A DNA stretch of 54,069 nt from Candidatus Parcubacteria bacterium (GCA_003599175.1 QZIY01000024.1:1-54069); one strand, 5' to 3'. Positions 7,227 through 30,818 are shown, counted from the stretch's first letter. The notes: a model not told the origin generated them from the letters alone. Program-made: numbers and translations.

Positions 7227-7250
7227 TATTTGACGTGGTACAATGGAGAC

Positions 7251-8246
7251 GTGCTTGAATCGTTTATATCTGGACCGCGAGCATTATTTAAAAAAGGCGG
7301 CCAGAGCTCATTCCTCTTATCAGTCGAAGCAAAAATTGGATTTCAGCGCATGATCGAAATTTGTGATTGCTCCGCTCGCACACTTCGCGACTGGAAGCGA
7401 GAAAAATTCCCGATGCCTCTCGCGTGTGCGACGTCGCTTGGCAAACAGGCGAAAGTACCACTACCTAGAAATTTTCTGACTCGCGAACGGTATGCGCACA
7501 CAAAGAAAGCAGGTCTCCAAGGCGCTCAGGCAGTTATGAAAAAATATGGCCGCATGCAAGTAGATGAGACGAAGCGAAAGCAGCGCTGGCACGCCTGGTG
7601 GCAACAAGAGGGTAGATTCAACAAGCATACGATAGCAACAGCGCGAGCGATCCATACGCCGGATAACGGCGAAATGTTGGCAGAATTTATCGGTATTGTC
7701 ATGGGCGATGGTGGTATCAGTGATTACCAGGTTACGATCAGTCTGCATCACGTTACCGATCTTCCATACATCGGATTCGTTACTCGGCTTATTCGCAAGC
7801 TATTCAAAGTGCGAGCGAGCGTGTATCACCATGAGAGTCGTTCGGTCAAAGACATTGTTGTATCGAGGAAAGCGCTCGTGGATTTTCTGCACTCGCGGGG
7901 CTTGCCGATTGGCAACAAAGTGCGTCAGCAGTTTGATATTCCTGAATGGATAAAAAAGAATCCAAAATACGCAAGAGCGTGCGTTCGTGGACTTGTCGAT
8001 ACAGACGGATCAGTTTTCACACACTCGTATCGTGTGAAGGGGAAGCGGTATAACTATAAAAAACTCTCTTTTTGTAGCCGTTCCCGTCCACTTCAGTTGA
8101 GTGTCGCGAAAATTCTTGCAGACTCAGGCCTTCATCCACGAGTGACTCTGTACGATGTGTGGCTCGATCGGAAGACGGATGTAAAGCGGTATTTTGAAGT
8201 TATTGGATCGCATAACCCAAAACATTTGAAGAGATACCGCAACTAG
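7251..8246 (+). CDS. free-standing LAGLIDADG-family endonuclease-like protein (copy 1)
   Basis: Two LAGLIDADG motifs: LAEFIGIVMGDGG and ACVRGLVDTDGS. The GTG 7251 start aligns with the ATG of paralog 29715..30710. TGgTACAAT lies 6 nt upstream. Confidence 0.8.
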   Translation: MLESFISGPRALFKKGGQSSFLLSVEAKIGFQRMIEICDCSARTLRDWKREKFPMPLACATSLGKQAKVPLPRNFLTRERYAHTKKAGLQGAQAVMKKYGRMQVDETKRKQRWHAWWQQEGRFNKHTIATARAIHTPDNGEMLAEFIGIVMGDGGISDYQVTISLHHVTDLPYIGFVTRLIRKLFKVRASVYHHESRSVKDIVVSRKALVDFLHSRGLPIGNKVRQQFDIPEWIKKNPKYARACVRGLVDTDGSVFTHSYRVKGKRYNYKKLSFCSRSRPLQLSVAKILADSGLHPRVTLYDVWLDRKTDVKRYFEVIGSHNPKHLKRYRN

Positions 8247-8264
8247 AGTACGATGCATCGCACG

Positions 8265-8353
8265 GGAGAGGTGGCTGAGCGGTCGAAGGCGATGGATTGC
8301 TAATCCATTATACGGGTAAAACCGTATCGAGGGTTCGAATCCCTCCCTCTCCG
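8265..8353 (+). tRNA. tRNA-Ser (anticodon GCT), long variable arm, no encoded CCA
   Basis: Acceptor GGAGAGG/CCTCTCC. Anticodon stem ATGGA/TCCAT with loop TTGCTAA. Variable arm TATACGGGTAAAACCGTAT. T-arm GAGGGTTCGAATCCCTC. Confidence 0.9.
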
Positions 8354-8434
8354 CAGGAACGTGAGGCGGTGTTACGCGACCGTTCCGCATTGAAAAATAT
8401 GGGTATTGTGCAATCGCGTCCACTCCGTCAAAAA

Positions 8435-8458
8435 GCAGCACGGCGCAGGGATTCGAAC
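8435..8458 (-). other. tRNA 3'-end-like fragment (T-loop plus acceptor-like tail only)
   Basis: Minus strand reads GTTCGAATCCCTGCGCCGTGCTGC. It shares the 12-mer AGGGATTCGAAC with tRNA-Ser at 29608..29696 in the same orientation. No matching 5' half is present. Confidence 0.35.
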
Positions 8459-9187
8459 TTATAGAGTCTCGCATGCAGCGAATAGTTGCTTTGCGTACTC
8501 ATCTCCCGCGACTTTGATCCATGAGCGATTAATGCGAAATACCCACCATGTCAGCAGTATCGCGTTAATTGCTAAGCACGCCCAAGCGACGACCATTTCG
8601 TACTCGCTTTTCGGAAATGCGGCGAGAGAAGTCGCACACGCTACTAATCCAATCAGAGCAAGCACTATGCCTGCTGGCTTCATGCCCCATAGATTTCTAC
8701 GAAAACCGTAACTCACGTTCTCTTTAAAAAGCAGTGCATACTTTGTTATGTCTCGAGTCTTTTCTCGCATAAAATTCGTGCATGATCGATAGATGTCTCT
8801 CGCCGCTTTCGGATCTTTTGCCTCTTGCTCAGCTGTTGGAAATACAATGTCCGGCAATAAACCTCGCAGTTTGTTTTTGTACCGTTCAACCGTTGGGCGA
8901 TCTAATGCTGATTGATAGGACAGGGTAAAGTCAGTCGGCATGCCACCCCAACTTTCGTACAATTCCGGTTCTTTTTTCTTGCCAAGGTCACGTCCTATTT
9001 CAGAAAAAAGGAGCGTCAGTAGGCTTTGTACCGAGAGCGTGCCGAACAGCCCGACGAGTGCTGAAACTATAGACGTGAGTGGAAAGAAGGCGAAGAATGC
9101 CAATCCGATCGGCAGCAGTACGATGAACACAGGCACTAACCGAGCGCGAAATGTGTAAGTATCGATATGCATGTTAGTTTTCGACAC
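8459..9187 (-). CDS. membrane protein, function unknown (partner of the MBL-fold gene)
   Basis: Two N-terminal and two C-terminal TM segments. GTG at 9187 overlaps the MBL gene by 14 nt. An alternative ATG at 9172 lies 1 nt after the MBL stop. Confidence 0.5.
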   Translation of the reverse strand: MSKTNMHIDTYTFRARLVPVFIVLLPIGLAFFAFFPLTSIVSALVGLFGTLSVQSLLTLLFSEIGRDLGKKKEPELYESWGGMPTDFTLSYQSALDRPTVERYKNKLRGLLPDIVFPTAEQEAKDPKAARDIYRSCTNFMREKTRDITKYALLFKENVSYGFRRNLWGMKPAGIVLALIGLVACATSLAAFPKSEYEMVVAWACLAINAILLTWWVFRINRSWIKVAGDEYAKQLFAACETL

Positions 9188-10232
9188 TGGCGTTAAACGG
9201 CATTTCCTCCACGGCGAACCAACCGGGACGCGTCACGCCGTCGCTTGGGTAGCAAACTCCTTTTCCTTGCGTTGTATAAACCTTGCTTCCGCGTCGTATG
9301 AGAGCATTGATGACTTTTTTGGCCGGATGTTTTGGTGAGTCCGGTGGCGCGGAGATGTGTGCCTTCTCTGCTTTGATGAGGTTGAGCACCGTCGGGCCCA
9401 CATTGCGTTTGCTACCGTGGTGCGGTACGTCGAGGAGATGTAAATCGTTCAGCGCAATTCCTTGGCTCGCGGCGCAAGCTGCTGCCTGCATGAGCGCGTC
9501 GATATCGGCATCGCCGGTGAATAGTATCTTGTTCGTACCGAGCGTGAACAAAATCACCGTGCTTGAGCTATTTTCCGCACTAAAGTGCCCACCCTCGTCG
9601 GTCAGTGTTTCTATCTCCATCGTCTCTGCGACCCATTCAACGGCTTCTTCTACCGCGTGAACCGCTGTCGTCAGGATATGACCCAAGGTCGGCGTCGGCG
9701 ATTCTGCGGCCTCGGGCAGCGTGCGGTAATGCGGCAACATGTTTTGGTAATGCTCGCGTGAGGGCCCGAGCACACGAATCATTCCATCCAAGTATATGTC
9801 CCCAGCAAACGGCTCGATGACTGGAACTTTCTTACGCGCAGCGATCTTATTCAGCTCGTGCACGAACTCAAGCTCCTCTCTCGCTTTGCGCTGCAAGCCG
9901 AGTGTCGTCAAACCTCGGTTCTCGAAGAGATGTCTGATGTTCTCGGCATGGTCCCACGGTTTGTGCATAACAAGCGCTCTCACGTCCATATTCTCTAGCA
10001 CTTCTGTAAGTCCAGATGCGTGATCGCCGTCGGGGTGCGTTGAAATGACCGCGTTGACTGTAGAGGTACTGTAATATTGCTGAATATGACTCACCAAAGC
10101 TTTGCCCGAGTCTTTGGTTCCACCATCAATTACAAACACATACTGACCTGTTTGGTCCCATACTCGGAGAGTAGCCGCATCGCCACCCTTCGATCCAGTT
10201 CCTACCGGCAAAAAATCTACTTCAAAATTCAT
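9174..10232 (-). CDS. MBL-fold metallo-hydrolase (ComEC/Rec2 C-terminal-domain-like)
   Basis: ISTHPDGDHASGL (HxHxDH-type motif), FTGDAD, DVPHHGSKRN. ATG 10232 sits 7 nt after extended -10 TGgTAGTAT. Confidence 0.75.
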   Translation of the reverse strand: MNFEVDFLPVGTGSKGGDAATLRVWDQTGQYVFVIDGGTKDSGKALVSHIQQYYSTSTVNAVISTHPDGDHASGLTEVLENMDVRALVMHKPWDHAENIRHLFENRGLTTLGLQRKAREELEFVHELNKIAARKKVPVIEPFAGDIYLDGMIRVLGPSREHYQNMLPHYRTLPEAAESPTPTLGHILTTAVHAVEEAVEWVAETMEIETLTDEGGHFSAENSSSTVILFTLGTNKILFTGDADIDALMQAAACAASQGIALNDLHLLDVPHHGSKRNVGPTVLNLIKAEKAHISAPPDSPKHPAKKVINALIRRGSKVYTTQGKGVCYPSDGVTRPGWFAVEEMPFNASVEN

Positions 10233-10288
10233 CCGGGCAATACTACCACCGTGCACGCTTCATATACAGCAAAGACTCACAGCTCTTT

Positions 10289-11623
10289 TTATTTCTCCAG
10301 CGTCACCAATCCTTTCGTGAGTACCAGTTTGCTTTTGATACACAGCAGTAATTCACGCTTCTCGGTCACGCTACCTTCTTTGAGCAGGTACTTTGCGTAA
10401 TCGCGCAGGTCAATTTCTTTTTGTGGCTTGGCCTCCGCTGCAGTACCGGTAAAGGCACGCTGGAACTTCCGCATGCGCTCCACCTCCGCCTCGAATTTCT
10501 CCCGCATGCTGATGTTGTTGAGATCGATCTTGTCCATAATCTTTACCGTCTGCGTAATCAACTCTTCCTCGCGCACGTAGCCATTCTTACAATCCCTGTC
10601 CCGTGCGCGCGTGCAGCCGTAGTAGACGTAGCGATTGGAACTGCCATCTTTCAGCTTCTTGAATTTCTCCTCCGCGGTGATGCCCGATCCGCACGCTCCG
10701 CATAGCATGAGTTTGATAAAGGCGAACTCTTTAATATCCGAGCGTATGATGCGGTCGCGCTTCAACTGTTCCTGCACTTTGTCGAACAATTCCTTGGTGA
10801 TGAGCGGTTGGTGTTTGCCGTCGTACCAGATGCCGCTCTTAACTGGGTACTCGAAAACACCGTAGTAAAAGGGATTTTGGAGTACGACGTACACACTGCT
10901 CAACGTCATGTTTTTGTTCCCTCGACTCTTGAAGTTGATCTCGAACTTGAGCCACTGGTATATTTTCCTGCCGCTCCATTTTTCGTTCGCTACTTTCTCG
11001 AACATCTGCTTTACCACTGGCGCTCGCAGAGCATCTACCACCGCGTGGCATTTTCGATCCATGTGTTTCTCGTTGCTGTAGCCGACCGGCGCGACACCGG
11101 GACGTAGTCCCATCTCGCAGCGGGTTCGTAGCCCCCGCTTCACATTCACGCCACGATTGTCGTTCTCGAGCTTTGCTTGCGAGCCGAGAATCATGAGAAG
11201 AAACTTCTCGTTCGGATTATTCCTAAAGCTCTGACTGTGCGTCCGTATCTCTTGTAGTCCACCCGCGTCCATGAGGTCGACTATCTTGCCGAGGTCACCC
11301 GCGTTTCTACTAATACGATCCGGTGCCCACGTTAGGATGCCGTTGTATTTACCGGCCCGCAGGTCCTCGACTATCTCATTGAAGACCGGTCGTGTGCCAG
11401 TCTCTTTTGCCGAGTGGCTCTCTCGCTTCATCTCCACGATCTCCAGCCCCTCTCGATCAGCGAGCTGGAGCATCTCCTTAATTTGCGAGTCGATGGAGAG
11501 CACTTGGCGCTCCTCCGACTCAGTGCTCTTTCTTGCATAGAGGCAGTATTTGACCTTAACGGGCTGCGCTTGGGGTTGCCTCCTAATGTCCCCCAGAGCA
11601 GGCCTTGGCACTATATTTTCCAT
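10289..11623 (-). CDS. large serine recombinase (copy 1)
   Basis: Resolvase catalytic N-terminus YARKSTESEERQVLSIDSQ...DRISRN, recombinase domain, Zn-ribbon CGACG...YYGC, coiled-coil tail. ATG taken at 11623; the ORF track TTG is at 11704. Confidence 0.85.
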   Translation of the reverse strand: MENIVPRPALGDIRRQPQAQPVKVKYCLYARKSTESEERQVLSIDSQIKEMLQLADREGLEIVEMKRESHSAKETGTRPVFNEIVEDLRAGKYNGILTWAPDRISRNAGDLGKIVDLMDAGGLQEIRTHSQSFRNNPNEKFLLMILGSQAKLENDNRGVNVKRGLRTRCEMGLRPGVAPVGYSNEKHMDRKCHAVVDALRAPVVKQMFEKVANEKWSGRKIYQWLKFEINFKSRGNKNMTLSSVYVVLQNPFYYGVFEYPVKSGIWYDGKHQPLITKELFDKVQEQLKRDRIIRSDIKEFAFIKLMLCGACGSGITAEEKFKKLKDGSSNRYVYYGCTRARDRDCKNGYVREEELITQTVKIMDKIDLNNISMREKFEAEVERMRKFQRAFTGTAAEAKPQKEIDLRDYAKYLLKEGSVTEKRELLLCIKSKLVLTKGLVTLEK

Positions 11624-11768
11624 ACACCACAAGGGATGACGCAGACCCTTGAAGGAGTCCAGGGCGTCCGAGAGGGCCGAGGTGTTGGTAACTTGCCCAC
11701 GCAATACGACGTTTAATCAATGCATCAACAGCTTCGCTTTCTATCCGAAGCTCGTTATACTATTTTCA

Positions 11769-12176
11769 ATGTTTGTCCGTATCGACAACCGATCCAGAGT
11801 ATTTGTCACTGTTGCTATCGTCGCGTTCTTGATGGTGGGAGTATTCGGGATTTTCCACGGCATGGATATGAGCTCGAGCGAGCAGATGTCCAACTGTCCT
11901 TTTATTATGGGAATTGCGGCGATCTGTAATATGTCGCCCTTTGAACACATAGCAGCGTGGCAGAACATGTTTGCATCGATTCCTCAGCAGACCACTGTAC
12001 TTACACTCTTACTTCTTGCGCTCTCGTTTGCGTTTTCGCGGCTCCTCTTATTTGCATTTCCGAGAGATGGTGATCAGGAACCACAGCGTCTCCTTTATGC
12101 AGATCGAGAACCAAAAGCCATCGATCCGTTACGACTTGCACTCGCCCGAGGCATAATTCATCCGAAGATTTTCTAG
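11769..12176 (+). CDS. membrane protein, function unknown
   Basis: 135 aa from MFVRIDNRSR. TATACT lies 7 nt upstream. TM segments present; no recognised domain. Confidence 0.4.
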   Translation: MFVRIDNRSRVFVTVAIVAFLMVGVFGIFHGMDMSSSEQMSNCPFIMGIAAICNMSPFEHIAAWQNMFASIPQQTTVLTLLLLALSFAFSRLLLFAFPRDGDQEPQRLLYADREPKAIDPLRLALARGIIHPKIF

Positions 12177-12232
12177 TGATCGTTGAATGGGCGTAGCTCT
12201 ATGCTTGCGTCTTTATTATCTCAGCAGTCACT

Positions 12233-12952
12233 ATGGAACCACAATTGAAACAAAATAATCTTGCTATCCCACTTGCGATCGTTATCGCGGGCGCTTTGAT
12301 CGCCGCTGCCGTCTACTTCGGCAACGCTGGTGCGGGTGGAGCGAGTGCCCTCCAGCCTCAAGGTGCGGAACAGCTTACGGGCGACCTCGAACAGATGAAG
12401 CCCATCTCTGCGGATGACCACATTCGCGGCAATCTAAACGCACCGGTTAAGATCGTGGAATATTCAGATCCCGAGTGTCCGTTCTGCAAACGCTTCCACG
12501 ACACGATGAAGCAAGTCATGAACGAATACGGTAAAGACGGAAAAGTTGCATGGGTCTACCGCAATTTTCCGCTTGATCAGCTCCACCCGAAGGCGCGCAG
12601 CGAAGCGACGGCTATTGAATGTGCCGGAGAGCTTGGCGGCAATGACAAATTCTGGGCATATGCGGATCGTCTCTACGAAGTCACACCATCAAATAATGGA
12701 CTCGACCCAATGGAGCTTCATAACATTGCGCAGTATGTTGGCCTTGACATGACCAAATTCAACACTTGCCTTACCAGCGACACGTTCGCACAGCACATTG
12801 AAGATGATGTTCAGAACGCAGTCGCTACCGGAGGCAATGGAACCCCATGGAGCATTGTCGTAGCCCCAAGCGGCAAAAAGTATCCGCTCTCGGGAGCACA
12901 GCCATACGAATCGGTTAAGCAACTCATCGAAATCGCGCTGAAAGACAAGTAA
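12233..12952 (+). CDS. DsbA-family thiol:disulfide oxidoreductase (membrane-anchored thioredoxin fold)
   Basis: N-terminal TM, active site CPFC, DsbA-like GTPWSIV. cis-Pro region. Confidence 0.8.
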   Translation: MEPQLKQNNLAIPLAIVIAGALIAAAVYFGNAGAGGASALQPQGAEQLTGDLEQMKPISADDHIRGNLNAPVKIVEYSDPECPFCKRFHDTMKQVMNEYGKDGKVAWVYRNFPLDQLHPKARSEATAIECAGELGGNDKFWAYADRLYEVTPSNNGLDPMELHNIAQYVGLDMTKFNTCLTSDTFAQHIEDDVQNAVATGGNGTPWSIVVAPSGKKYPLSGAQPYESVKQLIEIALKDK

Positions 12953-12958
12953 GCACCT

Positions 12959-13483
12959 ATGCGAGCCATTCTCAGAATATTCACAAACGTGCATTCGACG
13001 CTTCTTGCGCTCGCGGTGTCGCTGTTTGTGTTTGTGCTTGCGGTGTGGCTCCCGAATCTGCGCTTGTTGTTCCAGGTGTGGACAGATGCGTCAGTTTCGC
13101 TAGGAGATAAAGTCGCGCTTCCGATCAACTTGTTGCCTTCCATCGCCACTAACTTCACGCCCCTATCGGCCTCGTACACCATCGCAATCGCCATTCTCAC
13201 CGGTATCAACGTGGCTCTCATAATCCATCTGATTAAGACAAGGGGGATGCTCGGACAAGGCACTGTAGTTGGCGCTTCGGGCATATTCACTGGCGCGTTA
13301 GGGCTTGGATGTGCTGCCTGCGGCTCGATAATTCTGACATCACTTGTCGGCACGGCGGGCGGAGTAGGCATACTCGCCCTACTGCCACTTCGTGGAAGCG
13401 AGTTTGGCATCATCGGTGTCGTGCTCCTTGGGTATTCCACCTACTTGTTAGCAAAACAAATCAACAAACCACTGGTTTGTTAA
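12959..13483 (+). CDS. polytopic membrane protein with intramembrane CxxC (possible DsbB/VKOR-like partner)
   Basis: GALGLGCAACGSIILT within a TM segment, directly downstream of the DsbA-like gene. The function is inference only. Confidence 0.4.
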   Translation: MRAILRIFTNVHSTLLALAVSLFVFVLAVWLPNLRLLFQVWTDASVSLGDKVALPINLLPSIATNFTPLSASYTIAIAILTGINVALIIHLIKTRGMLGQGTVVGASGIFTGALGLGCAACGSIILTSLVGTAGGVGILALLPLRGSEFGIIGVVLLGYSTYLLAKQINKPLVC

Positions 13484-13502
13484 TTAAAACGGCTCTTAAA
13501 CT

Positions 13503-13934
13503 ATGAAAAATATAAAAACATCTTACATTCTTATCGGACTCGCAGTGCTCATCATCGGCGGATTCGGCTTAAGTAAATACCTGCAATCGAGTGATCCAAA
13601 TGTCGTCTCACAAAGTGGCTTTCATTGGCATCCTACGCTCACTATTTATGTGAAGGGAGAAAAACAAGAGGTACCGGCAAATATCGGTATCGGTGCTGTG
13701 CATCAACCGATGCATACGCATACTGAAGATGCCGCAGCGGGCGTGATTCATCTCGAATTTGCCGGAGCTGCGAAGAGAGAAGACCTTATGCTCGGGCAGT
13801 TCTTTAGGAATTGGGGTAAAGAGTTTAATTCATTCGGAACGAGCGTGAAGATGACCGTGAACGGGAAAGAAAACACCGAATTGGAAAATTACGTCCTACA
13901 AGAGAAAGACAGAATCGAACTCCGATACGAGTAG
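13503..13934 (+). CDS. membrane-anchored extracytoplasmic protein with His-rich patch
   Basis: N-terminal TM, then FHWHPTL and HQPMHTHTED motifs. No recognised family. Confidence 0.45.
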   Translation: MKNIKTSYILIGLAVLIIGGFGLSKYLQSSDPNVVSQSGFHWHPTLTIYVKGEKQEVPANIGIGAVHQPMHTHTEDAAAGVIHLEFAGAAKREDLMLGQFFRNWGKEFNSFGTSVKMTVNGKENTELENYVLQEKDRIELRYE

Positions 13935-13948
13935 GCCACTTGTGCTTC

Positions 13949-13965
13949 ATACCCTATAGGGGTAT
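13949..13965. promoter_or_regulatory. CsoR-type operator (GC-tract pseudo-palindrome)
   Basis: ATACCCTATAGGGGTAT lies 12 nt upstream of the 13977 ATG and resembles known CsoR operators (TACCC-N-GGGGTA). Confidence 0.5.
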
Positions 13966-13976
13966 CATGTGGACAT

Positions 13977-14249
13977 ATGAAAGCGAACGCAAAGAAAAAC
14001 GTACTCCGACGTCTTAGTCTCATTAGAGGACAGATTAATGGACTCATTAAAATGGTTGAGAACGAGCGCTATTGTATTGATATCATTACTCAATCAAGCG
14101 CAATTAAGGAAGCGCTATCGGGCGTTCAGGACGTGATGCTTGAGAACCATCTTACAACGCATGTCATTCATCAGATCAAGAACGGGGAGAGCAAGAAGGC
14201 GACTGCTGAAATATTGAAAATGTACAAGCTAGCGCAGAAGAAAAAGTAA
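13977..14249 (+). CDS. CsoR/RcnR-family (DUF156) metal-sensing repressor, copy 1
   Basis: RLSLIRGQINGLIKMVENERYCIDIITQ...LENHLTTHV. Ligand fingerprint read as x-C-H-H. Confidence 0.85.
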   Translation: MKANAKKNVLRRLSLIRGQINGLIKMVENERYCIDIITQSSAIKEALSGVQDVMLENHLTTHVIHQIKNGESKKATAEILKMYKLAQKKK

Positions 14250-14250
14250 T

Positions 14251-15802: not shown

Positions 15803-15809
15803 CAATTAT

Positions 15810-17403: not shown

Positions 17404-17431
17404 AGGCATTAGTTATCCACAGAGCGACTGT

Positions 17432-17458: not shown

Positions 17459-17502
17459 GTATTAGTAAAGGCCGATTATTATTATTAATAACTTATAAAC
17501 AT

Positions 17503-22651: not shown

Positions 22652-22655
22652 ATAT

Positions 22656-23315: not shown

Positions 23316-23321
23316 TTAACT

Positions 23322-23717: not shown

Positions 23718-23725
23718 TCAATCAT

Positions 23726-25330
23726 ATGAAAAATAAACTAATCGTTGGAGTCATTGCAGTCGTAGTCGTGATCGGTGGGATTGTCCTCCTGCAACAGTCA
23801 GGCACGGGGAATAAAGTGTTAGCTGGTAGTTTCTCAACTGACATCACTGGTCTCCCAGAAGCAATCTCATCAGAGATGGTCGAACTTAAAAATGGCGATA
23901 CCTACGACCTCACGGCTTCGATCGTAAAGAAAACGATCGGCAACAGCGTGGTCAAGATGCTCGCATATAACGGCATGATTCCGGGACCTATGATTAAAGT
24001 GCAACAAGGTGCGGAAGTGACACTTAATTTCACCAACAACACTGACGTCGATACGACGATTCACTCTCACGGAGTACGGCTAGAGAATAAGTTTGATGGT
24101 GTACCCGACATGACACAGAAAGAGGTCAAGCCAGGAGAGTCTTTCACGTACAAAGTGAAGTTTCCTGACGAGGGTATGTATTGGTATCACCCTCACATTC
24201 GAGAGGACTACGCGCAAGAACTTGGTCTCTACGGTAACTACCTTGTTACTCCCAACGATCCGAATTACTGGTCTCCGGTCAATCGTGAAGTCGCATTATT
24301 TGTAGACGATATTCTCATCGAAAATGGCAAGATTGCGACGTTCAGTAAAGTGTCCGCTGACCGTACTCTTATGGGCCGGTTTGGCAATACCATGCTCGTA
24401 AACGGTGAGACAGATTACGCACTTAAAGCAAAAGCAGGAGAGGTGATCCGTTTCTATATCACCAACTCGGCAAATACTAGAGTATTTAATCTTTCTATCC
24501 CCGGCGCAAAAATGAAGCTTGTGGGAGCTGATGGTGGTAAGTATGAACGCGAAACGTGGAGCGACGGCGTGATATTAAGTCCTTCTGAACGTGCCGTTGT
24601 TGAAGTGCTGTTTGCAAGTGCCGGATCATACAAGCTCGAGCATAAGACTCCGGATCGTACCTATACCCTTGGAACGATTGCCGTTGCGAATGAAAAAATT
24701 GAGACTTCTTTTGAGAAAGAATTTCTCACGCTTCGCTCAAATAAGGATATCCAATCAGAAATTGATGCCTTCAGGTCGTCCTTCAGTAAACCTGCAGACA
24801 AACGATTAAAGCTCACGATTGATATGGGCATGGATATGCAGGGCATGATGCAAAACAATACTGGTGGTCACAATATGAACATGATGGGCGGTGGAGAGAT
24901 GATGTCCAACAGTGAAATGGTGGCAAGCGGCGATCCTATTGAGTGGGAAGAAAACAATACGGCAATGAATACGATGTCTAACCCCGAAATGATGAAGTGG
25001 GTTATCCAAGACGAGGACACCGGTAAGAAAAACATGGATATTGATTGGAAATTCAAGGTCGGCGATAAGGTAAAAATTAAAATAACCAACGACCCGAAAT
25101 CCATGCATCCGATGCAACATCCGATCCACTTTCATGGTCAGCGATTCTTAGTGCTTTCTACCAACGGCAAACCTAGTGACAATCTTGTCTGGAAAGATAC
25201 GACCCTCATTCAAAACGGCGATACCGTGGAGATCCTTGTAGAAATGACCAATCCCGGCGAATGGATGGCACACTGTCATATCGCCGAGCACTTGGAGGCC
25301 AGCATGATGTTTGGCTTCAAGGTCGAGTAA
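23726..25330 (+). CDS. multicopper oxidase with Met-rich insert
   Basis: Copper ligand motifs HSHG, WYHPH, HPIHFHG, HCHIAEHLEASM. Met-rich loop MGMDMQGMMQNNTGGHNMNMMGGGEMM. Confidence 0.85.
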   Translation: MKNKLIVGVIAVVVVIGGIVLLQQSGTGNKVLAGSFSTDITGLPEAISSEMVELKNGDTYDLTASIVKKTIGNSVVKMLAYNGMIPGPMIKVQQGAEVTLNFTNNTDVDTTIHSHGVRLENKFDGVPDMTQKEVKPGESFTYKVKFPDEGMYWYHPHIREDYAQELGLYGNYLVTPNDPNYWSPVNREVALFVDDILIENGKIATFSKVSADRTLMGRFGNTMLVNGETDYALKAKAGEVIRFYITNSANTRVFNLSIPGAKMKLVGADGGKYERETWSDGVILSPSERAVVEVLFASAGSYKLEHKTPDRTYTLGTIAVANEKIETSFEKEFLTLRSNKDIQSEIDAFRSSFSKPADKRLKLTIDMGMDMQGMMQNNTGGHNMNMMGGGEMMSNSEMVASGDPIEWEENNTAMNTMSNPEMMKWVIQDEDTGKKNMDIDWKFKVGDKVKIKITNDPKSMHPMQHPIHFHGQRFLVLSTNGKPSDNLVWKDTTLIQNGDTVEILVEMTNPGEWMAHCHIAEHLEASMMFGFKVE

Positions 25331-25358
25331 AAGCTCGTCACAGGGGCAAACAGGTGGC

Positions 25359-25386
25359 AAAAAGGGGCTTACAAAGGCTCCTTTTT
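25359..25386. terminator. bidirectional rho-independent terminator between convergent genes
   Basis: AAAAAGGGGC-ttacaaag-GCTCCTTTTT (one G-U pair), with A/T runs on both sides. Confidence 0.55.
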
Positions 25387-25406
25387 GCTTTGAGTGTTTA
25401 TAAGAA

Positions 25407-25718
25407 CTAGCAGTGTTGAGCTAGGACAGTGATACATTCATGGATGTGCGGTAGGCATACCAGACAATGAGCCACCGGTAATTGATTAAAGAAACCAAAA
25501 ATAATGGGCAATTTCCTTAGTTTCGGTTTCTTCTCCTGCAGATATCTTTCGGCAGGCTTTATAATGACCTCAATTTTTGTCCGTACTTCTATTTCAAGGA
25601 GTTTCTGACAGCTCGGGCAACGCATCGTAAACGAGGCATTGGAATTGAACGCTCCATTTTTGAAGATAATATTAGTGCAATGAGGGCAATTGCCTATATT
25701 CAACTGATCTTGATCCAT
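25407..25718 (-). CDS. zinc-ribbon protein with C-terminal hydrophobic segment (hypothetical)
   Basis: CPHC...CPSC pairs. Confidence 0.4.
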   Translation of the reverse strand: MDQDQLNIGNCPHCTNIIFKNGAFNSNASFTMRCPSCQKLLEIEVRTKIEVIIKPAERYLQEKKPKLRKLPIIFGFFNQLPVAHCLVCLPHIHECITVLAQHC

Positions 25719-25844
25719 AGATGGTGCTGGAGGTTTCTTGGGCTGGTGGTTGGTTGTGAAGCTTCAGAAATCCTCGATCATGGTTAATTAATAAATCGTT
25801 TCGCTGTCCTGGGTCGACCACCTCCCGGACAGCTAACGGGCAAA

Positions 25845-26378
25845 TTAGGTGTCATCCATTGCCTTTCGTTTCGAGCCAGTCATCGACATCTTGTCGACCA
25901 GCACTTTTTTCATTTCCTCCAAGTTATCCACAGTTTTTTGATCACGAGCGTAATTCTTTTTATTTAAGTCTTTTTCTTTATTCTTGTTAGTAATTCCGGC
26001 TGACTGATCTGACCGGTCTGTGTGACCGATGTGCCGGTCTGACTGACCGATCTGATTTGGGGTCGGTCTGTGTGACCGATCTAGTTTTAAGAGGTAGTAC
26101 AGGTTGTGGTATCGTTGTCGGCCTTTGCGAATGAGATTCAGTTTTATAAGTTGCCGGATGCCTCTTTGCACGCTCGAGATGCTGGCTCCTATTTTGTTGG
26201 CAATGTGCTTGTGTGATGGAAAACAAAAACCCTCCTGATTAGCATGTGCCGCCAGGCAGTTATAAATTGCGATGCCGATCGGCTTGAGTCTTTGGCCATA
26301 TTCCTCGAGGAGTGCTTTGTTGACCCAGTACCAATCGCCATTTCTTAAATCTCTAACTTTTATTTTTTCATCAGACAT
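25845..26378 (-). CDS. helix-turn-helix replication-initiator-like protein (HTH_36/DnaD-like)
   Basis: IAIYNCLAAHANQEGFCFPSHKHIANKIGASISSVQRGIRQLIKLNLI. ATG at 26378 (MSDEKIK). Contains iterons in its 3' half. Confidence 0.6.
   Translation of the reverse strand: MSDEKIKVRDLRNGDWYWVNKALLEEYGQRLKPIGIAIYNCLAAHANQEGFCFPSHKHIANKIGASISSVQRGIRQLIKLNLIRKGRQRYHNLYYLLKLDRSHRPTPNQIGQSDRHIGHTDRSDQSAGITNKNKEKDLNKKNYARDQKTVDNLEEMKKVLVDKMSMTGSKRKAMDDT
25996..26080. repeat. iteron-like direct repeats inside the rep-like gene
   Basis: CCGGTCTGTGTGACCGAT (26013-30), CCGGTCTGACTGACCGAT (26034-51), TCGGTCTGTGTGACCGAT (26063-80), and a degenerate copy at 25996-26012. Confidence 0.65.
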
Positions 26379-26570
26379 GGCAACGAATAATAAAGGCGAC
26401 TGGTTGACCAGACCGCGCCTTATTCCTCCCATCACCGTCTGGCGCCATTGAGGGGAGAGTAAGACGCCGTCTACCATTCTTTTGCTTTGGGTAGTGCCCG
26501 GTCGATGTTGTCCATCGCTCGACAGAAGTCTCGTCGCATAGTTGGATTTTCAAGTTCCCGGATGGTGAAA

Positions 26571-26849
26571 TTAGTCAGCAGACTCTCCCGTCTCCAAAGA
26601 AGTTCCTTCCTCGTCGGCGGCTTCCGAGTTATCCGTTTCCACATCGTCCGGATAAGTCTCTTGATCAGGATTTTCGTTCTCATGTTTTTTGATTTGATCC
26701 ATGTGATCCAATAGCATGAACGCCATGCGCTTAAAGCCAGCATGGACTTTCCAAACTTCTTGTCGGGAAGGCTCTCGGCCGAGAACGTCGGTGAGAGCAT
26801 TGCGAGTAAGCTCAACAAGAGCTTCCTCATCTTTGTTTGGTTTGGACAT
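26571..26849 (-). CDS. hypothetical protein with acidic C-terminus
   Basis: 92-aa ORF preferred over the overlapping 131-aa frame because its composition is more protein-like. No homology recognised. Confidence 0.35.
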   Translation of the reverse strand: MSKPNKDEEALVELTRNALTDVLGREPSRQEVWKVHAGFKRMAFMLLDHMDQIKKHENENPDQETYPDDVETDNSEAADEEGTSLETGESAD

Positions 26850-26907
26850 GCGGTGGTTTGGTTCATAGAAGTGACCTCACACTTTTTTGATCCACCCTGC
26901 CTTACGA

Positions 26908-27114
26908 CTAAGGCAAGAAAACTTCCTCTACTCTGACTCCGAGAGCCAAAGCGATCCGCTGGGCTGTTTCGAGATTCGGACGCTTCCGTCCTGTCTCGTA
27001 CCGGCTGATCGCAGTGTTATGCCTAAAACCAAGGATTCGGGCTAGCTGGTATTGCGTTAGCCCTTTCTTGATTCGAAGGTCACGGAGTTTTATATTCACT
27101 GGTGATTTGTTCAT
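26908..27114 (-). CDS. XRE-family HTH regulator (Cro-like)
   Basis: LRIKKGLTQYQLARILGFRHNTAISRYETGRKRP. Confidence 0.8.
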   Translation of the reverse strand: MNKSPVNIKLRDLRIKKGLTQYQLARILGFRHNTAISRYETGRKRPNLETAQRIALALGVRVEEVFLP

Positions 27115-27143
27115 ATGTTTAACTTTTAGACCCCTACAGTCAT

Positions 27144-27259
27144 ATTAAGCAATTTTGCTTAATAGGTCAATATATTAGCATGTGGATAAGCAAAGTTGCT
27201 TAATATTTACTAATTTGCTATAGTTAAGCAATCAAGGTCGTCATTAATCGCTTAAGCAA
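27144..27259. promoter_or_regulatory. operator cluster of the divergent cro/cI-like switch
   Basis: Perfect palindrome ATTAAGCAA-TT-TTGCTTAAT (27144-63). Near-palindrome ATAAGCAA-AG-TTGCTTAAT (27186-204). Half-sites TTAAGCAA at 27224 and 27252. Confidence 0.65.
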
Positions 27260-27270
27260 AATCAACGAAT

Positions 27271-27987
27271 ATGTCATTTGGTTCATATCTAAAAAAACAA
27301 AGGGAATCGAATAATTGGACTATAAAAGAGCTGGCCGAACGGCTCGGTTTTTCGTCGAGCTACATCAGCCAGCTGGAGAATGGAGCTCGCATCCCGTCCC
27401 AAAAACAGCTGGCCATTTTTGCTAAGGCTTACCAACTCCCCGAGGAGGAAGTCAGGAAGCAGTGGACGGAGGGAAAGATCCAACAGGTCAGTAAGGACGG
27501 TAATTACAAATTTGGCATCACAGATGCCGGTGATAAGCGTGTACACGAAGTCGCCAATAAACTCGAAGAGGGATTGGAGGAATTAAAAAAAAGTTTTTCC
27601 GGTGACGGCCATTTTAAATTGCCAGTACTCGTAGCAATTCCTATTGATGATCTCGATGGTCATCTGAGTCGAACGAGTGACTTTGTGTTATTGCCAAAAG
27701 ATAACGTCATACCGGGTCACCGAGTATTTGGACTGCGTGTGTCCGATCTGACGCTCCCCGATGCCGGCATTCTTTCCGGAGACTTCATCATTCTCGATGC
27801 AGACATTCCTGCAAAGAATGGCGACATCGTGATCATGAGTACACCGGATGGTCTGGTCATGAGTTATTACCAAGAACGGGGCGATCACCTCGAACTTCGG
27901 CCGGAGAGAGATGGTTTCAAAAAGACCTACCATCTCCAAGAAAGCAAAATGATAGGTCGTCTGGTCTATCACATAAAAAAATACTAA
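27271..27987 (+). CDS. CI-like repressor: XRE HTH plus S24/LexA-like C-terminal domain (catalytic dyad apparently degenerate)
   Basis: WTIKELAERLGFSSSYISQLENGAR. C-terminal GDFIILDADIPAKNGDIVIM...LELRPE. Confidence 0.8.
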   Translation: MSFGSYLKKQRESNNWTIKELAERLGFSSSYISQLENGARIPSQKQLAIFAKAYQLPEEEVRKQWTEGKIQQVSKDGNYKFGITDAGDKRVHEVANKLEEGLEELKKSFSGDGHFKLPVLVAIPIDDLDGHLSRTSDFVLLPKDNVIPGHRVFGLRVSDLTLPDAGILSGDFIILDADIPAKNGDIVIMSTPDGLVMSYYQERGDHLELRPERDGFKKTYHLQESKMIGRLVYHIKKY

Positions 27988-27992
27988 TCGCC

Positions 27993-28019
27993 AGGGCTCT
28001 CCACCAAACGGAGAGCCCT
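27993..28019 (+). terminator. hairpin downstream of the cI-like gene (possible terminator)
   Basis: AGGGCTCTCC-accaaac-GGAGAGCCCT. Only a weak T-run follows. Confidence 0.4.
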
Positions 28020-28087
28020 CAAGCATTTTAGAGAATAAAAAGTAAAGAAAAGGTCAAAAATTATTAAAGAATTTATAAACTAAAATC

Positions 28088-29653
28088 ATGAACTACTTAA
28101 TCTACGGCCGTGTCTCTACCTCTCGTCAGGCCGAACGAGAACTGAGTATTCCGGCACAGGTGAAAGCATGTCAGAAGTACGGCATGGATCACCACTGGAC
28201 TCTCGCACCAGACGGCATTTATGAGGAAAAGGGCGAATCAGCTCGAACAGTTGAACGTCCACAGCTTCAGAAAATGCTTCACCGAGCAAAGACGGACGGC
28301 AAGGTCGATGTGATCTTGATGCACAAGTTGGACCGTATGTGTCGTAACGTCGCCGACTATGCGGCCATAAAGATGATGCTCAAAAAGCACGACGTCCGAT
28401 TGATCTCGGTGGTCGAGCAGTTCGACGAGTCTTTCTCCGGAGAGCTGGTCGAGAACATCATGTCGTCGATCGCTCAGTGGACGTCCCAGAACATCAGCTG
28501 GGAGGTCAAGAAGGGTCTCAAGGAGGCCGTAGAGCGTGGTCGTTTTCCCGGATACGCACCAACCGGTTACTTAAACGATAAGAAAACAAAGTCACTCATC
28601 GTCGATACTCTGCGAGCACCATTCGTAAAGATGGCGTTTGAGTTCTACGCCACCGGCAAGTACAGCTACGATTCACTTGCCGCCGAGCTTGCTAAGCGTG
28701 GCTTCAAAAGCAAATACGGAAATCTGGTGAGACGAACATCGATCGAGCATATCCTGATGAACCCGATCTACTACGGTCTGGTTAAAACTCGTTCAGCAAC
28801 GTGTCAGTCAAGTTTTCCGACACTCATCACCAAAAAACTCTTTGACGACGTTCAGGAGATCATCCAACAGCACAATCACTCTGCCGATCGCAGTCGTAAG
28901 CATTCATATCCGATGGCTGGATTCATGCGATGCGCCGTCTGTGGTTCTACACTTTGTGGGCAGACGCAAAAAGGTCATCTCTACTACGCATGCACCCATT
29001 GGAACGATAAGACCTGTTCGGAGCGCAAATACATCCGCTGGGAGACGGTTGAGGATCAGGTCGCAAATCATCTCTCAAGAGTGCAGTTGCCTGATCGGTT
29101 TAAGAAGGTCTTGGATGCCTACTTCCAGCACTTCGCCAAGGAGCGAATGGGTCAGGAAGAGAGGGAGCGAAAGACTCTCAGGCAGGAGCTAGTAAGGGTG
29201 CAACAGCAGATCCGGAACATCGTCGTGGATCGCTCAAAACGCATCATAGACGCTGATGTGTTTATAAAGATTCAGGACGAGCTCTTAAAGGAGAAAGAGA
29301 TGTATCAGGAACGTTTGTCGATCCTTGAGGGTAAGTCGGACAAATTCGTGCAGAAGTTTAACGAGATACTCGACTTTACGGAGCATGCTGATAAGGTGTT
29401 CCGAACCAGTGGCATGCACCAGAAGCGAACGCTGGTGAAGCTCTGTTTTGAGGGCTTCACGGTGCAAAATCAAAAACTGACGCCAATATGGACGCCAGTC
29501 TTTGATGTTCTTATGGACTTAAACTCTAGCAATTTCGAACCCCCAAAAGTCGGTGGCAAGGGCTCAAAAACTCTTGCCGTGACTAAGGTTCAAAGTTGCC
29601 AATCTGGCGGAGGGGGAGGGATTCGAACCCTCGATACGGTTTTACCCGTATAG
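28088..29653 (+). CDS. large serine recombinase/integrase (copy 2); last ~15 codons overlap tRNA-Ser on the opposite strand
   Basis: YGRVSTSRQ...LDRMCRN catalytic domain, recombinase domain, Zn-ribbon CAVCGS...YYAC, coiled coil. The C-terminal GGGGGIRTLDTVLPV is a translation of the tRNA complement. Confidence 0.85.
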   Translation: MNYLIYGRVSTSRQAERELSIPAQVKACQKYGMDHHWTLAPDGIYEEKGESARTVERPQLQKMLHRAKTDGKVDVILMHKLDRMCRNVADYAAIKMMLKKHDVRLISVVEQFDESFSGELVENIMSSIAQWTSQNISWEVKKGLKEAVERGRFPGYAPTGYLNDKKTKSLIVDTLRAPFVKMAFEFYATGKYSYDSLAAELAKRGFKSKYGNLVRRTSIEHILMNPIYYGLVKTRSATCQSSFPTLITKKLFDDVQEIIQQHNHSADRSRKHSYPMAGFMRCAVCGSTLCGQTQKGHLYYACTHWNDKTCSERKYIRWETVEDQVANHLSRVQLPDRFKKVLDAYFQHFAKERMGQEERERKTLRQELVRVQQQIRNIVVDRSKRIIDADVFIKIQDELLKEKEMYQERLSILEGKSDKFVQKFNEILDFTEHADKVFRTSGMHQKRTLVKLCFEGFTVQNQKLTPIWTPVFDVLMDLNSSNFEPPKVGGKGSKTLAVTKVQSCQSGGGGGIRTLDTVLPV

Positions 29654-29696
29654 CGATTTAGCAAACCGCCGCACTAGGCCACTATGCGACCCCTCC
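29605..29696 (-). tRNA. tRNA-Ser (anticodon GCT) with encoded CCA
   Basis: Reverse complement: GGAGGGG...GCGGT-TTGCTAA-ATCGC...TATACGGGTAAAACCGTAT...GAGGGTTCGAATCCCTC-CCCCTCC-G-CCA. The 38-nt variable arm/T-arm block is identical to tRNA 8265..8353. Confidence 0.9.
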
Positions 29697-29714
29697 AGTG
29701 TGATGCATCGTACT

Positions 29715-30710
29715 TCAGTTCTTGTATCTCTTCAAATGTTTTGGATTATGGCTTCCAATCAAAGCAAAATACCTTTTTAGATCTGCCTTACTGTCTAACC
29801 ATACGTCATATTTCGTAACGCGCGGATTCAAACCTATATCGGCGAGAATTTTTGCAACGCTTATCTGAAGCGGACGCGAGTGGCTGCAAAAGGAGAGCTT
29901 TTTATAATTATACCGTTTCCCACTGGCTATATACGAATGCGTAAAAATTGTTCCATCTGTATCGATGAGCCCACGCACACAAGCGATAGAATAATCTCTG
30001 TTTTTCTTTATCCAATCAGGAATGTCGAATTGCTGCGCTACCTTATTACCGATTGGCAAACCGTGCTCGTGCAAATACAAAACAAGTGCTTTTCTCGATA
30101 TGGTGATGTAATTCACAGAATTTTTGGGGTGATGGTATGTTTGCGGCGTCAGTTTAAATAATCGCTTAATCAATCTGGTCACAAAGCGGCTGTAGGGAAG
30201 ATCAGCGACATGATGCAAACTTATCACCACTTGATATTCGCTGATACCACCATCGCCCATAAGGATTCCAAAAAATTCAGCGAGCTCAGCGCTCTGTCTT
30301 GGGGTATGGATCTTTTTGGGCTGCAGGATCGGTGATTCACTCAATTTGCCCTCTTGATCCCACCACTTCTTCCACGCTGCATTTCGCGTTGTCTCATCGA
30401 ATTGCATCTTCCCGTATTTCTTGATGACAGCTTGCGCCCCCTTCAGGCCCGCAACCTTCGCGTGTGCATATCTTTCTCGCGTTTGCATACGCTTTGGCAA
30501 TGGCACATTCGATGTTCGTGATAGGAGTTGCGCACACGCGAGCGGCATCGGAAACTTTTCGCGACTCCAATCACGCAGCGTGCGCATGGAACAATGACAG
30601 AGGGCGGCCATTCGCTCCATGCCTATCCGTTCTTCGACAGCCAACAAGAATTTTCGCTGCTCGCCGCGCTTGAGTACGATCCGAGGACTAGATATAAACG
30701 ACTCTAGCAT
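29715..30710 (-). CDS. free-standing LAGLIDADG-family endonuclease-like protein (copy 2)
   Basis: LAEFFGILMGDGG and ACVRGLIDTDGT. Roughly two-thirds identical by eye to 7251..8246. TGgTAAAAT lies 6 nt upstream of the ATG. Confidence 0.8.
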   Translation of the reverse strand: MLESFISSPRIVLKRGEQRKFLLAVEERIGMERMAALCHCSMRTLRDWSREKFPMPLACAQLLSRTSNVPLPKRMQTRERYAHAKVAGLKGAQAVIKKYGKMQFDETTRNAAWKKWWDQEGKLSESPILQPKKIHTPRQSAELAEFFGILMGDGGISEYQVVISLHHVADLPYSRFVTRLIKRLFKLTPQTYHHPKNSVNYITISRKALVLYLHEHGLPIGNKVAQQFDIPDWIKKNRDYSIACVRGLIDTDGTIFTHSYIASGKRYNYKKLSFCSHSRPLQISVAKILADIGLNPRVTKYDVWLDSKADLKRYFALIGSHNPKHLKRYKN

Positions 30711-30818
30711 GTCTCCATTTTACCACATCTTCGATGAATTTATTCTCGTGTTTTGCAAAAGACTAGAATAAGAAAAAGCGACTCTTTTTAGGCACGAAGC
30801 ATTTGGTATATTAAACGC

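Follow-up and report, generated by a model that had tools for sequence, protein, structure and literature searches.

Free-standing homing endonuclease genes are described from T-even phages, where they include SegB in the tRNA gene cluster of T4 (PMC2988022; for SegB also PMC13096335). In bacteria of the Candidate Phyla Radiation (CPR), LAGLIDADG homing endonucleases were found in insertions of 16S and 23S rRNA genes, in a paper whose text makes no mention of tRNA (PMC11270868). Large serine recombinases are known from elements and prophages such as phiC31, Bxb1 and those of the A118 type (reviewed in PMC3783163). Here we describe a locus at which both kinds of gene adjoin tRNA-Ser genes. It lies on a contig of 54,069 nt from Candidatus Parcubacteria bacterium (GCA_003599175.1, QZIY01000024.1), hereafter the window, which was analyzed at its full length and belongs to a metagenome-assembled genome (MAG) of 0.92 Mb in 40 contigs. 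Its closest homologous proteins are named Candidatus Kaiserbacteria or Paceibacterota in public records, that is Parcubacteria within the CPR. In the window, two cassettes, each consisting of a LAGLIDADG endonuclease-like gene and a tRNA-Ser(GCT) gene, face each other across accessory DNA. We found no paper describing tRNA-flanking LAGLIDADG genes in CPR bacteria.

The original prediction took these mirror-image modules for parts of an island of non-standard architecture. We consider it probable that the mirror image instead represents two convergent chromosomal cassettes, each of which served as landing site for a different serine-recombinase element. Ordinary processes at an unusual, duplicated site would then probably explain the layout, and a new island type with built-in endonuclease-tRNA ends is not supported. 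The two cassettes comprise the following features:

7236 to 7244, plus strand: extended -10 element TGGTACAAT of LAGL_1, read from the sequence and ending 6 nt before the GTG
7251 to 8246, plus strand: LAGL_1, 331 aa, with an N-terminal helical, helix-turn-helix (HTH)-like domain (residues ~1-130) and a double-motif LAGLIDADG nuclease fold
8226 to 8254, plus strand: candidate promoter of tRNA_1, overlapping the end of LAGL_1 and the spacer, with -35 TTGAAG (8226-8231), 17 nt, and -10 TACGAT (8249-8254)
8265 to 8354, plus strand: tRNA-Ser(GCT)_1 (ARAGORN, Rfam)
29605 to 29696, minus strand: tRNA-Ser(GCT)_2 (ARAGORN, Rfam)
29707 to 29735, minus strand: candidate promoter of tRNA_2 within the 3' end of LAGL_2, with -35 TTGAAG (29735-29730) and -10 TACGAT (29712-29707)
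29715 to 30710, minus strand: LAGL_2, 331 aa, sister copy of LAGL_1 by sequence, tree and fold
30717 to 30725, minus strand: extended -10 element TGGTAAAAT of LAGL_2, ending 6 nt before the ATG

The anatomy of the two cassettes is largely as had been predicted. ARAGORN detects exactly two tRNA genes in the window, both tRNA-Ser(GCT), and each follows one of the two open reading frames (ORFs), so the unit is present twice and inverted, with 21.25 kb between the modules. The predicted ends of the tRNA genes had to be moved to the positions listed above. Both genes match the Rfam tRNA model over its full length (60 bits for tRNA_1, 52.7 bits for tRNA_2) and are thus intron-free. The two proteins, judged two-thirds identical by eye, share 224 of 331 residues (68%) in a gap-free alignment (expect value E = 1e-176), and the similarity of the modules therefore survives formal comparison. 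The matching start contexts (GTGGTACAATGGAGAC-GTG for LAGL_1, GTGGTAAAATGGAGAC-ATG for LAGL_2; in both, GTGGTAcAATGGAGAC precedes the GTG or ATG), the 18-nt spacers between ORF and tRNA (AGTACGATGCATCGCAC and AGTACGATGCATCACAC) and the acceptor stems (GGAGAGG/CCTCTCC in tRNA_1 versus GGAGGGG/CCCCTCC in tRNA_2) were all read correctly. An identical block within the tRNAs does exist, at a length of 39 nt (8309-8347) instead of the proposed 38. A 17-nt word of the T arm occurs in the window at these two sites only, with 0.22 occurrences expected by chance, and the two tRNA genes as a whole are 81% identical. We rejected recent gene conversion or element-borne DNA as source of the 39-nt block: relatives lacking the homing endonuclease gene (HEG) carry the identical variable and T arm, and the sequence shared by copies of the right-hand element, element B below, begins only past the CCA.

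The linkage of endonuclease gene and tRNA is a property of the whole family. We scanned one genome per GTDB species and found at least 469 loci that encode relatives of the 331-aa subfamily, the record titles of which include Kaiser-, Yanofsky-, Lipton-, Nealson-, Moran- and Uhrbacteria. The best 80 of these loci were examined and 78 could be assessed; in every one of the 78 a tRNA-Ser gene lies directly downstream on the same strand (77 GCT, 1 TGA), at a median gap of ~18 nt. The earlier description of an endonuclease-like gene hard-wired to a tRNA gene thus applies well beyond this genome. A second module within 6 kb is present at none of the best 80 of the 469 loci, and with the cassette being family-wide and single elsewhere, the claim of a special island architecture of which the modules form part is not supported.

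Among closer relatives the family is patchy. It occurs in 17 of 61 genomes searched for LAGLIDADG paralogues (60 relatives and this genome), while the 331-aa subfamily is found in 13 of 401 genomes of the order. By our count, ~24 of the 25 paralogues with enough flanking sequence contact a tRNA gene, and the tRNA species tracks the subfamily. In close relatives, genes of the Ser(GCT) subfamily end 16-20 nt and those of the Gln(CTG) subfamily 2-14 nt before the tRNA; those of the Ser(TGA/CGA/GGA) and Tyr(GTA) subfamilies run into the tRNA, with the stop codon 14-38 nt past its border, and in the Leu(CAA) subfamily the tRNA is located upstream of the gene. This genome encodes two further, shorter paralogues, one of which stops 3 nt short of tRNA-Gln(CTG) on contig 11 and the other of which lies directly downstream of tRNA-Leu(CAA) on contig 1. 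A three-part layout of LAGLIDADG paralogue, tRNA-Gln(CTG) and large serine recombinase is repeated on contig C11 (10678-12981; L122:2679-4979), where the recombinase is 41% identical to recombinase A of the window and is transcribed toward the 3' end of the tRNA-Gln(CTG).

Comparison with relatives also shows where the two modules belong. In the genus, recG and comF/pilM are neighbors with a single tRNA-Ser(GCT) gene between them, and the orientation of this gene varies. Its 5' side points toward recG in one set of genomes and loci (G036, G020, G034, G063, G021, G015, G018, G017, L059) and toward comF in another (G031, G016, G019, G061, G005, G011, G033, G029, G008, G014, G001, G006, as well as G009, G060, L057 and L061); in four genomes the comF-facing tRNA is 29-49 nt from the comF stop codon. 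In the window, the left module takes the recG side, like the gene in G017 and L059, and the right module the comF/pilM side, like that in G001, G009, G060 and L057. Each module therefore occupies the position at which relatives have their one chromosomal tRNA-Ser(GCT), a further argument against modules as island parts. Where the whole interval is assembled in genomes of the genus, its length varies mostly on the 3' side of the tRNA, according to our reading of the coordinates. The unlinked loci with unrelated intervening DNA that would have spoken against the original prediction were not encountered, as the locus is conserved; relatives, however, carry one module, and among the 401 genomes of the order this genome alone has two, in both orientations together.

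At the identical comF-tRNA-Ser(GCT) position we observed intact genes, decayed remnants and empty sites, the pattern of presence and absence that a homing cycle would leave. Empty alleles with identical tRNAs are found in two genomes of the genus (G031, G006) and in two metagenome contigs (L207, L208). tRNA_2 is 93-97% identical to the tRNAs of the closest congeners (G031, G006, G001, G017) and thus of the native type of the clade, whereas tRNA_1, which is 93% identical to the tRNA of a Paceibacterota locus (L128), belongs to a type known from other lineages of Parcubacteria. Three other metagenome contigs have the GGAGGGG variant of tRNA_2 in exactly this form; exact copies of tRNA_2 in metagenome contigs, including L207 and L208, lack the endonuclease gene, and none of the three contigs, all without this gene, is a strain variant of the present genome. 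An exact scan of metagenomes for tRNA_1 gave no match.

The accessory nature of the DNA between the tRNA 3' ends had been recognized correctly: Pfam comparison identifies two tRNA-directed large serine recombinases, copper and other metal genes and a cro/cI pair. It is, however, no single block. The 21 kb consist of two independent elements, each at the 3' terminus of one tRNA, with the following features:

8355 to ~11695, minus strand: element A, 3.3 kb, delimited by Pfam matches, junction and family boundary
8459 to 9187, minus strand: membrane protein of A, transcribed toward tRNA_1
9174 to 10256, minus strand: metallo-beta-lactamase (MBL)-fold protein of A (Pfam Lactamase_B)
10289 to 11623 (11704 with the longer ORF), minus strand: large serine recombinase A (Pfam)
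11696 to 11768, no strand: stretch of at most ~75 nt between the distal ends of A and B, with a hairpin AGCTTCG...CGAAGCT and a TATACT box
11769 to 29604, plus strand: element B, 17.9 kb, delimited by Pfam matches and collinear with the element of genome G138
11769 to 12176: small membrane ORF in the cargo of B, with a homologous ORF at the same place in the G138 element
12233 to 12952: DsbA-like protein, cargo (Pfam, as for all further cargo)
13977 to 14249 and 17503 to 17784: CsoR, two copies, cargo
14251 to 14907: ICMT-like protein, cargo
15810 to 16667 and 19305 to 20162: ATP-cone/Mrr protein, two copies, cargo
16600 to 17403: cupredoxin-like protein, cargo
18711 to 19298: AAA_28 protein, cargo
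20423 to 22651: copper P-type ATPase, cargo
22656 to 23315: DUF6629 protein, cargo
23322 to 23717: HXXEE protein, cargo
23726 to 25330: multicopper oxidase, cargo
25407 to 25718, minus strand: ORF in the core of B
25845 to 26477, minus strand: HTH_36 rep-like protein, core (Pfam)
26471 to 26866, minus strand: ORF, core
26908 to 27114, minus strand: cro-like protein, core (Pfam)
27271 to 27987, plus strand: cI/S24 protein, core (Pfam)
28088 to 29653, plus strand: large serine recombinase B, core, the last ~16 codons of which read into tRNA_2

Both recombinase ORFs (A 10289-11704, minus strand; B 28088-29653, plus strand) are transcribed toward their tRNA. They contain the Resolvase, Recombinase and Zn_ribbon_recom domains (PF00239, PF07508, PF13408) of large serine recombinases, with the N-terminal catalytic Ser in YARKST (A) and YGRVST (B). 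The family of recombinase A occurs in 123 of 301 genomes of the order. The junction of element A (CTCCGC followed by AGGAACGTGAGGCGGTGTTACGCGACCGT) is common to G002, where the same transition follows tRNA-Ser(CGA). There, a recombinase of 84% identity lies 2.7 kb from this tRNA, and the post-tRNA DNA AGGAACGTGAGACCGTGTTTCGCGACCGT matches the DNA after tRNA_1. At the distal end, similarity of the A family stops at ~11694 in more than 10 loci.

Homologues of integrase B that are 79-90% identical occur in genomes of other families of the order (G138, G087, G160, G232, G293), and their ORFs always enter the 3' end of an opposite-strand tRNA-Ser gene (TGA, CGA, GCT or GGA). The shared sequence GATTGGCAACTTTGAACC begins right after ...CCGCCA in 8 loci with 4 Ser anticodons, while the tRNA bodies differ; a host junction is thus common to the copies of B in 8 loci, as it is to A and G002. 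The core of B, from the ORF at 25407 to the integrase, is kept in all copies (66-99% identity in G138, G087, G160 and G232). The G138 element is collinear with the window from 11.8 to 29.6 kb, with copper ATPase (88%), oxidase (90%), DsbA and the ORF 11769-12176 in the same order, and because the G138 copy shares these genes in this order, element B spans ~11.77 kb to 29604. Consequently, a split of the block at the GC shift at ~17.4 kb, which we had considered, was replaced by a split at ~11.7 kb. The horizontal spread of element B between families is shown, and on the strength of its junctions B is read as a mobile element that integrates at tRNA-Ser 3' termini. Sites with a tRNA identical to tRNA_2 are empty in contig L208 and occupied in L207; neither circular nor attP forms were seen. 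We also looked for a second, direct copy of the tRNA 3' end at the distal island end, which a tyrosine integrase would be expected to leave, and none exists elsewhere in the window. The stretch from 11696 to 11768 may be a residue of the original spacer between the two tRNAs.

Three further observations concern element B. The integrase frame runs 48 nt into tRNA_2 in antisense, while the element proper starts past the CCA of the tRNA. Because the element sequence starts only there, the last ~16 codons of integrase B are host DNA, and this host-encoded tail is expected to change from one insertion site to the next, and also on excision. Within the cargo, the segments 13977-16667 and 17503-20162 are a partial internal duplication in which CsoR ... 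ATP-cone/Mrr nuclease occurs twice (75% nucleotide identity over 186 nt). From the absence of the duplication in the G138 copy and the fall in GC content at ~17 kb, the cargo would seem to be a mosaic made up from two related elements. Finally, a non-coding element of ~70 nt at the border of cargo and core (25323-25391; AAAGCTCGYCACAGGGGCAAACA..GGCAAAAAAGGGGCT...GGCTCCTTTTTGCTTT) is kept in the B copies of G232 (88%) and G087 (83%), and a similar stretch is found at the same position in G138.

The mechanism we envision starts from a free-standing homing endonuclease gene that would dock on the 5' flank of tRNA-Ser(GCT) and supply the promoter displaced by docking, so that the tRNA would still work. 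Sister subfamilies would dock in like manner upstream of Ser(TGA/CGA/GGA), Tyr and Gln genes and downstream of Leu(CAA). The 3' terminus of tRNA-Ser would in turn be the attachment site for two unrelated families of large-serine-recombinase elements. Two convergent cassettes in the recG-comF interval would offer two tail-to-tail landing sites, both of which would have been filled, A at tRNA_1 and B at tRNA_2, with the far ends of the elements meeting tail to tail within ~75 nt. Two filled landing sites would then resemble an island whose ends mirror each other.

How the second cassette arose is less certain. LAGL_1 and LAGL_2 are mutual best matches in a search of 5.8 billion proteins, at 68% identity versus at most 60% to any other protein, and they are sisters in the protein tree with 100/99 support. 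LAGL_1 is only 56% identical to the endonuclease at L128, where the tRNA is of the tRNA_1 type. Since tRNA type and endonuclease relationships disagree, the endonuclease lineage and the tRNA bodies have different histories. Tentatively, and with weak conviction, we read these relationships as the result of a copying event that placed the resident endonuclease gene before a further tRNA-Ser(GCT) gene, one of foreign type. Ancient paralogy, in which plus and minus cassettes would each have orthologues, was rejected, as the tree has the two copies as sisters and the orientations would need 3 changes. It is also conceivable, although we think it unlikely, that the second cassette arrived whole with the island DNA by recombination with a congener of opposite orientation; the contig would then be a natural hybrid of a plus haplotype (recG...LAGL_1-tRNA_1-A) and a minus haplotype (B-tRNA_2-LAGL_2...comF). 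Such an import would fit the two orientations that exist as alternative states in the genus, the different types of tRNA_1 and tRNA_2, the lower GC content from ~17 to 39.6 kb, across and past the right module, and the saturated synonymous sites expected of orthologues from different species. However, since the two endonucleases are sisters and each other's closest relatives, the donor would have to be an unsampled, very close lineage; the disagreement of tRNA type and endonuclease lineage argues against import as well, and tRNA_2, in the low-GC part, is of the native type of the clade.

Two other accounts of the double module fare considerably worse. If the modules were functional terminal inverted repeats of one composite mobile or invertible unit, with the recombinases moving or flipping the 21-kb block, one would understand why two inverted repeats of ~1.1 kb exactly flank the accessory DNA, why the recombinases point outward and why module orientation differs among relatives, and the 39-nt identical block could allow a rare homologous inversion. 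Yet both modules sit in the single-cassette positions of relatives, the interior is made of two elements whose relatives integrate singly at one tRNA-Ser, and identity between the repeats is just ~72%, their synonymous sites being saturated. Furthermore, the pair is carried by no other of the 401 genomes of the order, nor is there a second copy within 6 kb at any of the best 80 of the 469 wider loci. We regard a composite unit as very improbable. Least probable of all is a metagenomic mis-join of two strains or species. The genome is a MAG of 40 contigs, contigs of three related genomes (G006, G018, G021) end right after tRNA-Ser(GCT), and the GC content shifts inside the block. But the modules are clearly different sequences and no collapsed or mirrored repeat, no long exact repeat within 8.4-29.6 kb could have seeded a join, and the outer flanks are equal in GC and show the recG...comF/pil synteny of the genus.

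The protein itself has the motifs and the predicted fold of a LAGLIDADG endonuclease. Pfam LAGLIDADG_3 is matched weakly, and both copies contain two motifs (FIGIVMGDGG and VRGLVDTDG in LAGL_1, FFGILMGDGG and VRGLIDTDG in LAGL_2). The catalytic D153 and D252, which lie in the motif ends GDGG and DTDG, are invariant in 40 homologues. A profile of these homologues matches archaeal intein endonuclease domains and I-Tsp061I (2dch, 7qsu). An AlphaFold (AF2) model built on their alignment reaches a predicted local distance difference test score (pLDDT) of 89.7, and its C-terminal ~200 residues superpose on I-Tsp061I (template modelling (TM) score 0.75, E = 2e-11, Foldseek); I-DmoI, PI-PfuI and I-AniI are further matches, and WhiA is among the structural matches too. 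Model and profile match agree on the pseudo-dimeric alpha-beta-beta-alpha-beta-beta-alpha LAGLIDADG fold. By predicted fold and catalytic residues the protein thus qualifies as a monomeric double-motif LAGLIDADG endonuclease of predicted activity. Between the two genes, nonsynonymous divergence (dN) is 0.27 versus a proportion of synonymous differences (pS) of 0.80, and both copies appear to be under purifying selection. Because synonymous sites are saturated, the split of LAGL_1 and LAGL_2 is old and no recent conversion took place.

Two putative promoters accompany the gene. TGnTAnAAT, GGAGry and then the start codon precede nearly all members of the 331-aa family in many lineages, and TGnTAnAAT is an extended -10 box 6 nt before the ATG, from which a leaderless mRNA would probably be transcribed. 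At its end, where it encodes NPKHLKRY, the ORF includes TTGAAG, followed 17 nt on by TACGAT, which is 10 nt before the tRNA. This arrangement (TTGArr-17 nt-TAnnAT) is kept in all endonuclease-bearing loci and in decayed remnants; those in G001, G009 and G060 retain just a 3' piece of the ORF with the candidate tRNA promoter. It seems, from this conservation, that the endonuclease gene carries the promoter of the tRNA in its own 3' end.

Several points weigh against the interpretation given so far. The duplication of the cassette is old, as judged by the saturated synonymous sites, while element B looks recently mobile. For element A, the 31 nt at the tRNA 3' end are identical in both loci compared, which blurs its crossover point, and the far junction of B is located only to ~75 nt. 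A generic two-hexamer scan called neither of the proposed promoters, and we therefore infer both from conservation. HEG-bearing and HEG-less alleles do not differ in their tRNA sequences, so that the homing target cannot be the tRNA body alone, and the flank upstream of the tRNA varies from genome to genome. Moreover, the strict position across many lineages and the purifying selection would also fit a domesticated function.

With these points in mind, we lean slightly toward active homing by the LAGL family, on account of its presence in only 13 of 401 genomes, the intact, decayed and empty alleles, the intact catalytic residues and the scattering of orientation over the protein tree. The protein might instead be a domesticated, WhiA-like DNA-binding or maintenance factor that regulates or protects the adjoining tRNA-Ser(GCT) and is not selfish. 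The position kept in 78 of 78 loci of many lineages, the selection on the genes, the N-terminal HTH-like domain, WhiA among the structural matches and the conserved promoter-like DNA overlapping the gene's own coding end would all suit such a role. Against such a role, the distribution is sparse and patchy and not that of a housekeeping factor (3% of the order's genomes and a minority of the genus), and relatives whose tRNA is identical thrive in the absence of the gene. There are also decayed remnants and one pseudogenised paralogue, and the nearest structures are active intron and intein endonucleases. WhiA has lost its catalytic acidic residues, while both catalytic Asp residues of the LAGL proteins are invariant. 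Domestication thus appears rather improbable to us.

Taking active homing one step further, one might speculate that the cassettes represent an undescribed class of CPR selfish elements that dock on the edge of a tRNA gene and pay with a tRNA promoter, that breaks made by the enzyme duplicate or flip the locus, and that this genome is a two-copy, tail-to-tail intermediate. We offer this as a doubtful possibility. If true, enzyme breaks would explain why the single cassette of relatives may point either way, and the intermediate would offer two landing sites for serine-recombinase islands. The 39-nt block could then let the 21-kb block invert with neither tRNA damaged; such an inversion would join the 5' half of tRNA_1 to GATTGGCAACTTTGAACC and that of tRNA_2 to AGGAACGTGAGG.

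Besides these main results, we noted some features of the neighborhood and of relatives. The gene adjoining LAGL_2 is a TrhO-like rhodanese (30819-31724, plus strand; UPF0176_N, Rhodanese and Rhodanese_C) rather than the longer ORF on the minus strand (30720-31739). This genome has one copy of the rhodanese gene, which is present in only 12 of the 41 genus genomes searched, at other places there; being patchy and located elsewhere in relatives, trhO is uninformative as a marker of the native flank. An inverted copy of the last ~22 nt of the tRNA, just past a hairpin, lies ~45 nt downstream of tRNA-Ser(GCT) in three loci (L035, L169, L205). It is weaker in G034 and G029, is also seen in the window at 8447-8458, and co-varies with the T arm of its own tRNA. 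Such copies could be what is left of a former tail-to-tail partner, or they could belong to an attachment site. As proof that a partner was lost they were dismissed, since they occur in some loci only and the near-palindromic T arm confounds the test. The RecG match is split at ~residue 463 within one open frame of 776-952 aa in three genomes (G022:C45:4502-7219, G028:C34:1987-4275, G002:C10:8119-10413), which suggests an in-frame insertion of up to ~160 residues. In addition, several Parcubacteria possess a tRNA-Ser(ACT) (L033:17434-17520 in G028, L124:3957-4044 in G129, G023:C42:2257-2344, L153:5834-5924, L162:5832-5921). A serine tRNA with A34 is unusual in bacteria. Compared by eye, those of G028 and G129 show paired stem changes and hence look like real genes and not decayed copies. 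The tRNA-Ser(ACT) gene lies divergently upstream of a LAGLIDADG gene in three loci and adjoins a homologue of recombinase A in G129. As this second AGY tRNA is present in only 2 of 41 genus genomes and in other arrangements, we rejected it as ancestral partner of the endonuclease gene.

Taken together, the lasting results are the endonuclease-tRNA cassette with its candidate promoters, the cross-family elements specific for the tRNA-Ser terminus and the orientation-flipping hotspot. In the 78 assessable loci of the best 80, a large LAGLIDADG family is fixed at a set distance from tRNA-Ser(GCT), with sister families on other tRNAs; if active, it would be a source of natural enzymes with long, conserved targets and would plainly exemplify a selfish gene that repays its host with a promoter. 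Serine recombinases that use the tRNA-Ser terminus carry copper-resistance cargo between families of ultra-small bacteria, at an integrase identity of 79-90%, and the mobility of element B bears on gene exchange among CPR bacteria. The recG-comF interval emerges as an integration hotspot whose tRNA changes its orientation between species, and a genome that holds both orientations makes the flipping mechanism testable with reads.

How, then, does this locus compare with the known systems? Like SegB, the LAGL gene lies outside any intron or intein, is intergenic beside a tRNA gene and optional among relatives, and would be expected to spread by cutting the gene-less allele with co-conversion of flanks. 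In contrast, SegB is a GIY-YIG enzyme of a phage, whereas LAGL combines LAGLIDADG motifs with an HTH extension in cellular CPR genomes. Unlike SegB, LAGL lies within ~20 nt of one particular tRNA gene, which it overlaps in some subfamilies, and appears to bring along a candidate tRNA promoter in its coding end as well as a putative leaderless promoter. With its best structural matches I-Tsp061I (2dch, TM 0.75) and I-DmoI (2vs7, TM ~0.68 on target) it shares two motifs and acidic catalytic residues. These archaeal enzymes, however, are encoded in rRNA introns and have rRNA genes as targets, while LAGL is free-standing, has ~130 extra N-terminal residues and adjoins an intron-free tRNA. The endonucleases in rRNA gene insertions of CPR bacteria share with LAGL the phylum-level hosts, the superfamily and the invasion of a conserved RNA gene region, but LAGL is located outside the RNA gene, on its flank (PMC11270868).

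Elements A and B resemble phiC31, Bxb1 and A118-type prophages in the Resolvase, Recombinase and Zn-ribbon domains of their integrases, the N-terminal catalytic Ser, the position of the integrase at the element end by the junction and the lack of a long direct repeat at the element ends. Serine integrases usually target protein-coding genes, while tRNA 3' ends are classic targets of tyrosine integrases. In this respect both elements depart from their kind: A and B use the tRNA-Ser 3' terminus, B accepts any Ser isoacceptor, and its integrase reading frame continues into the DNA of the host tRNA.

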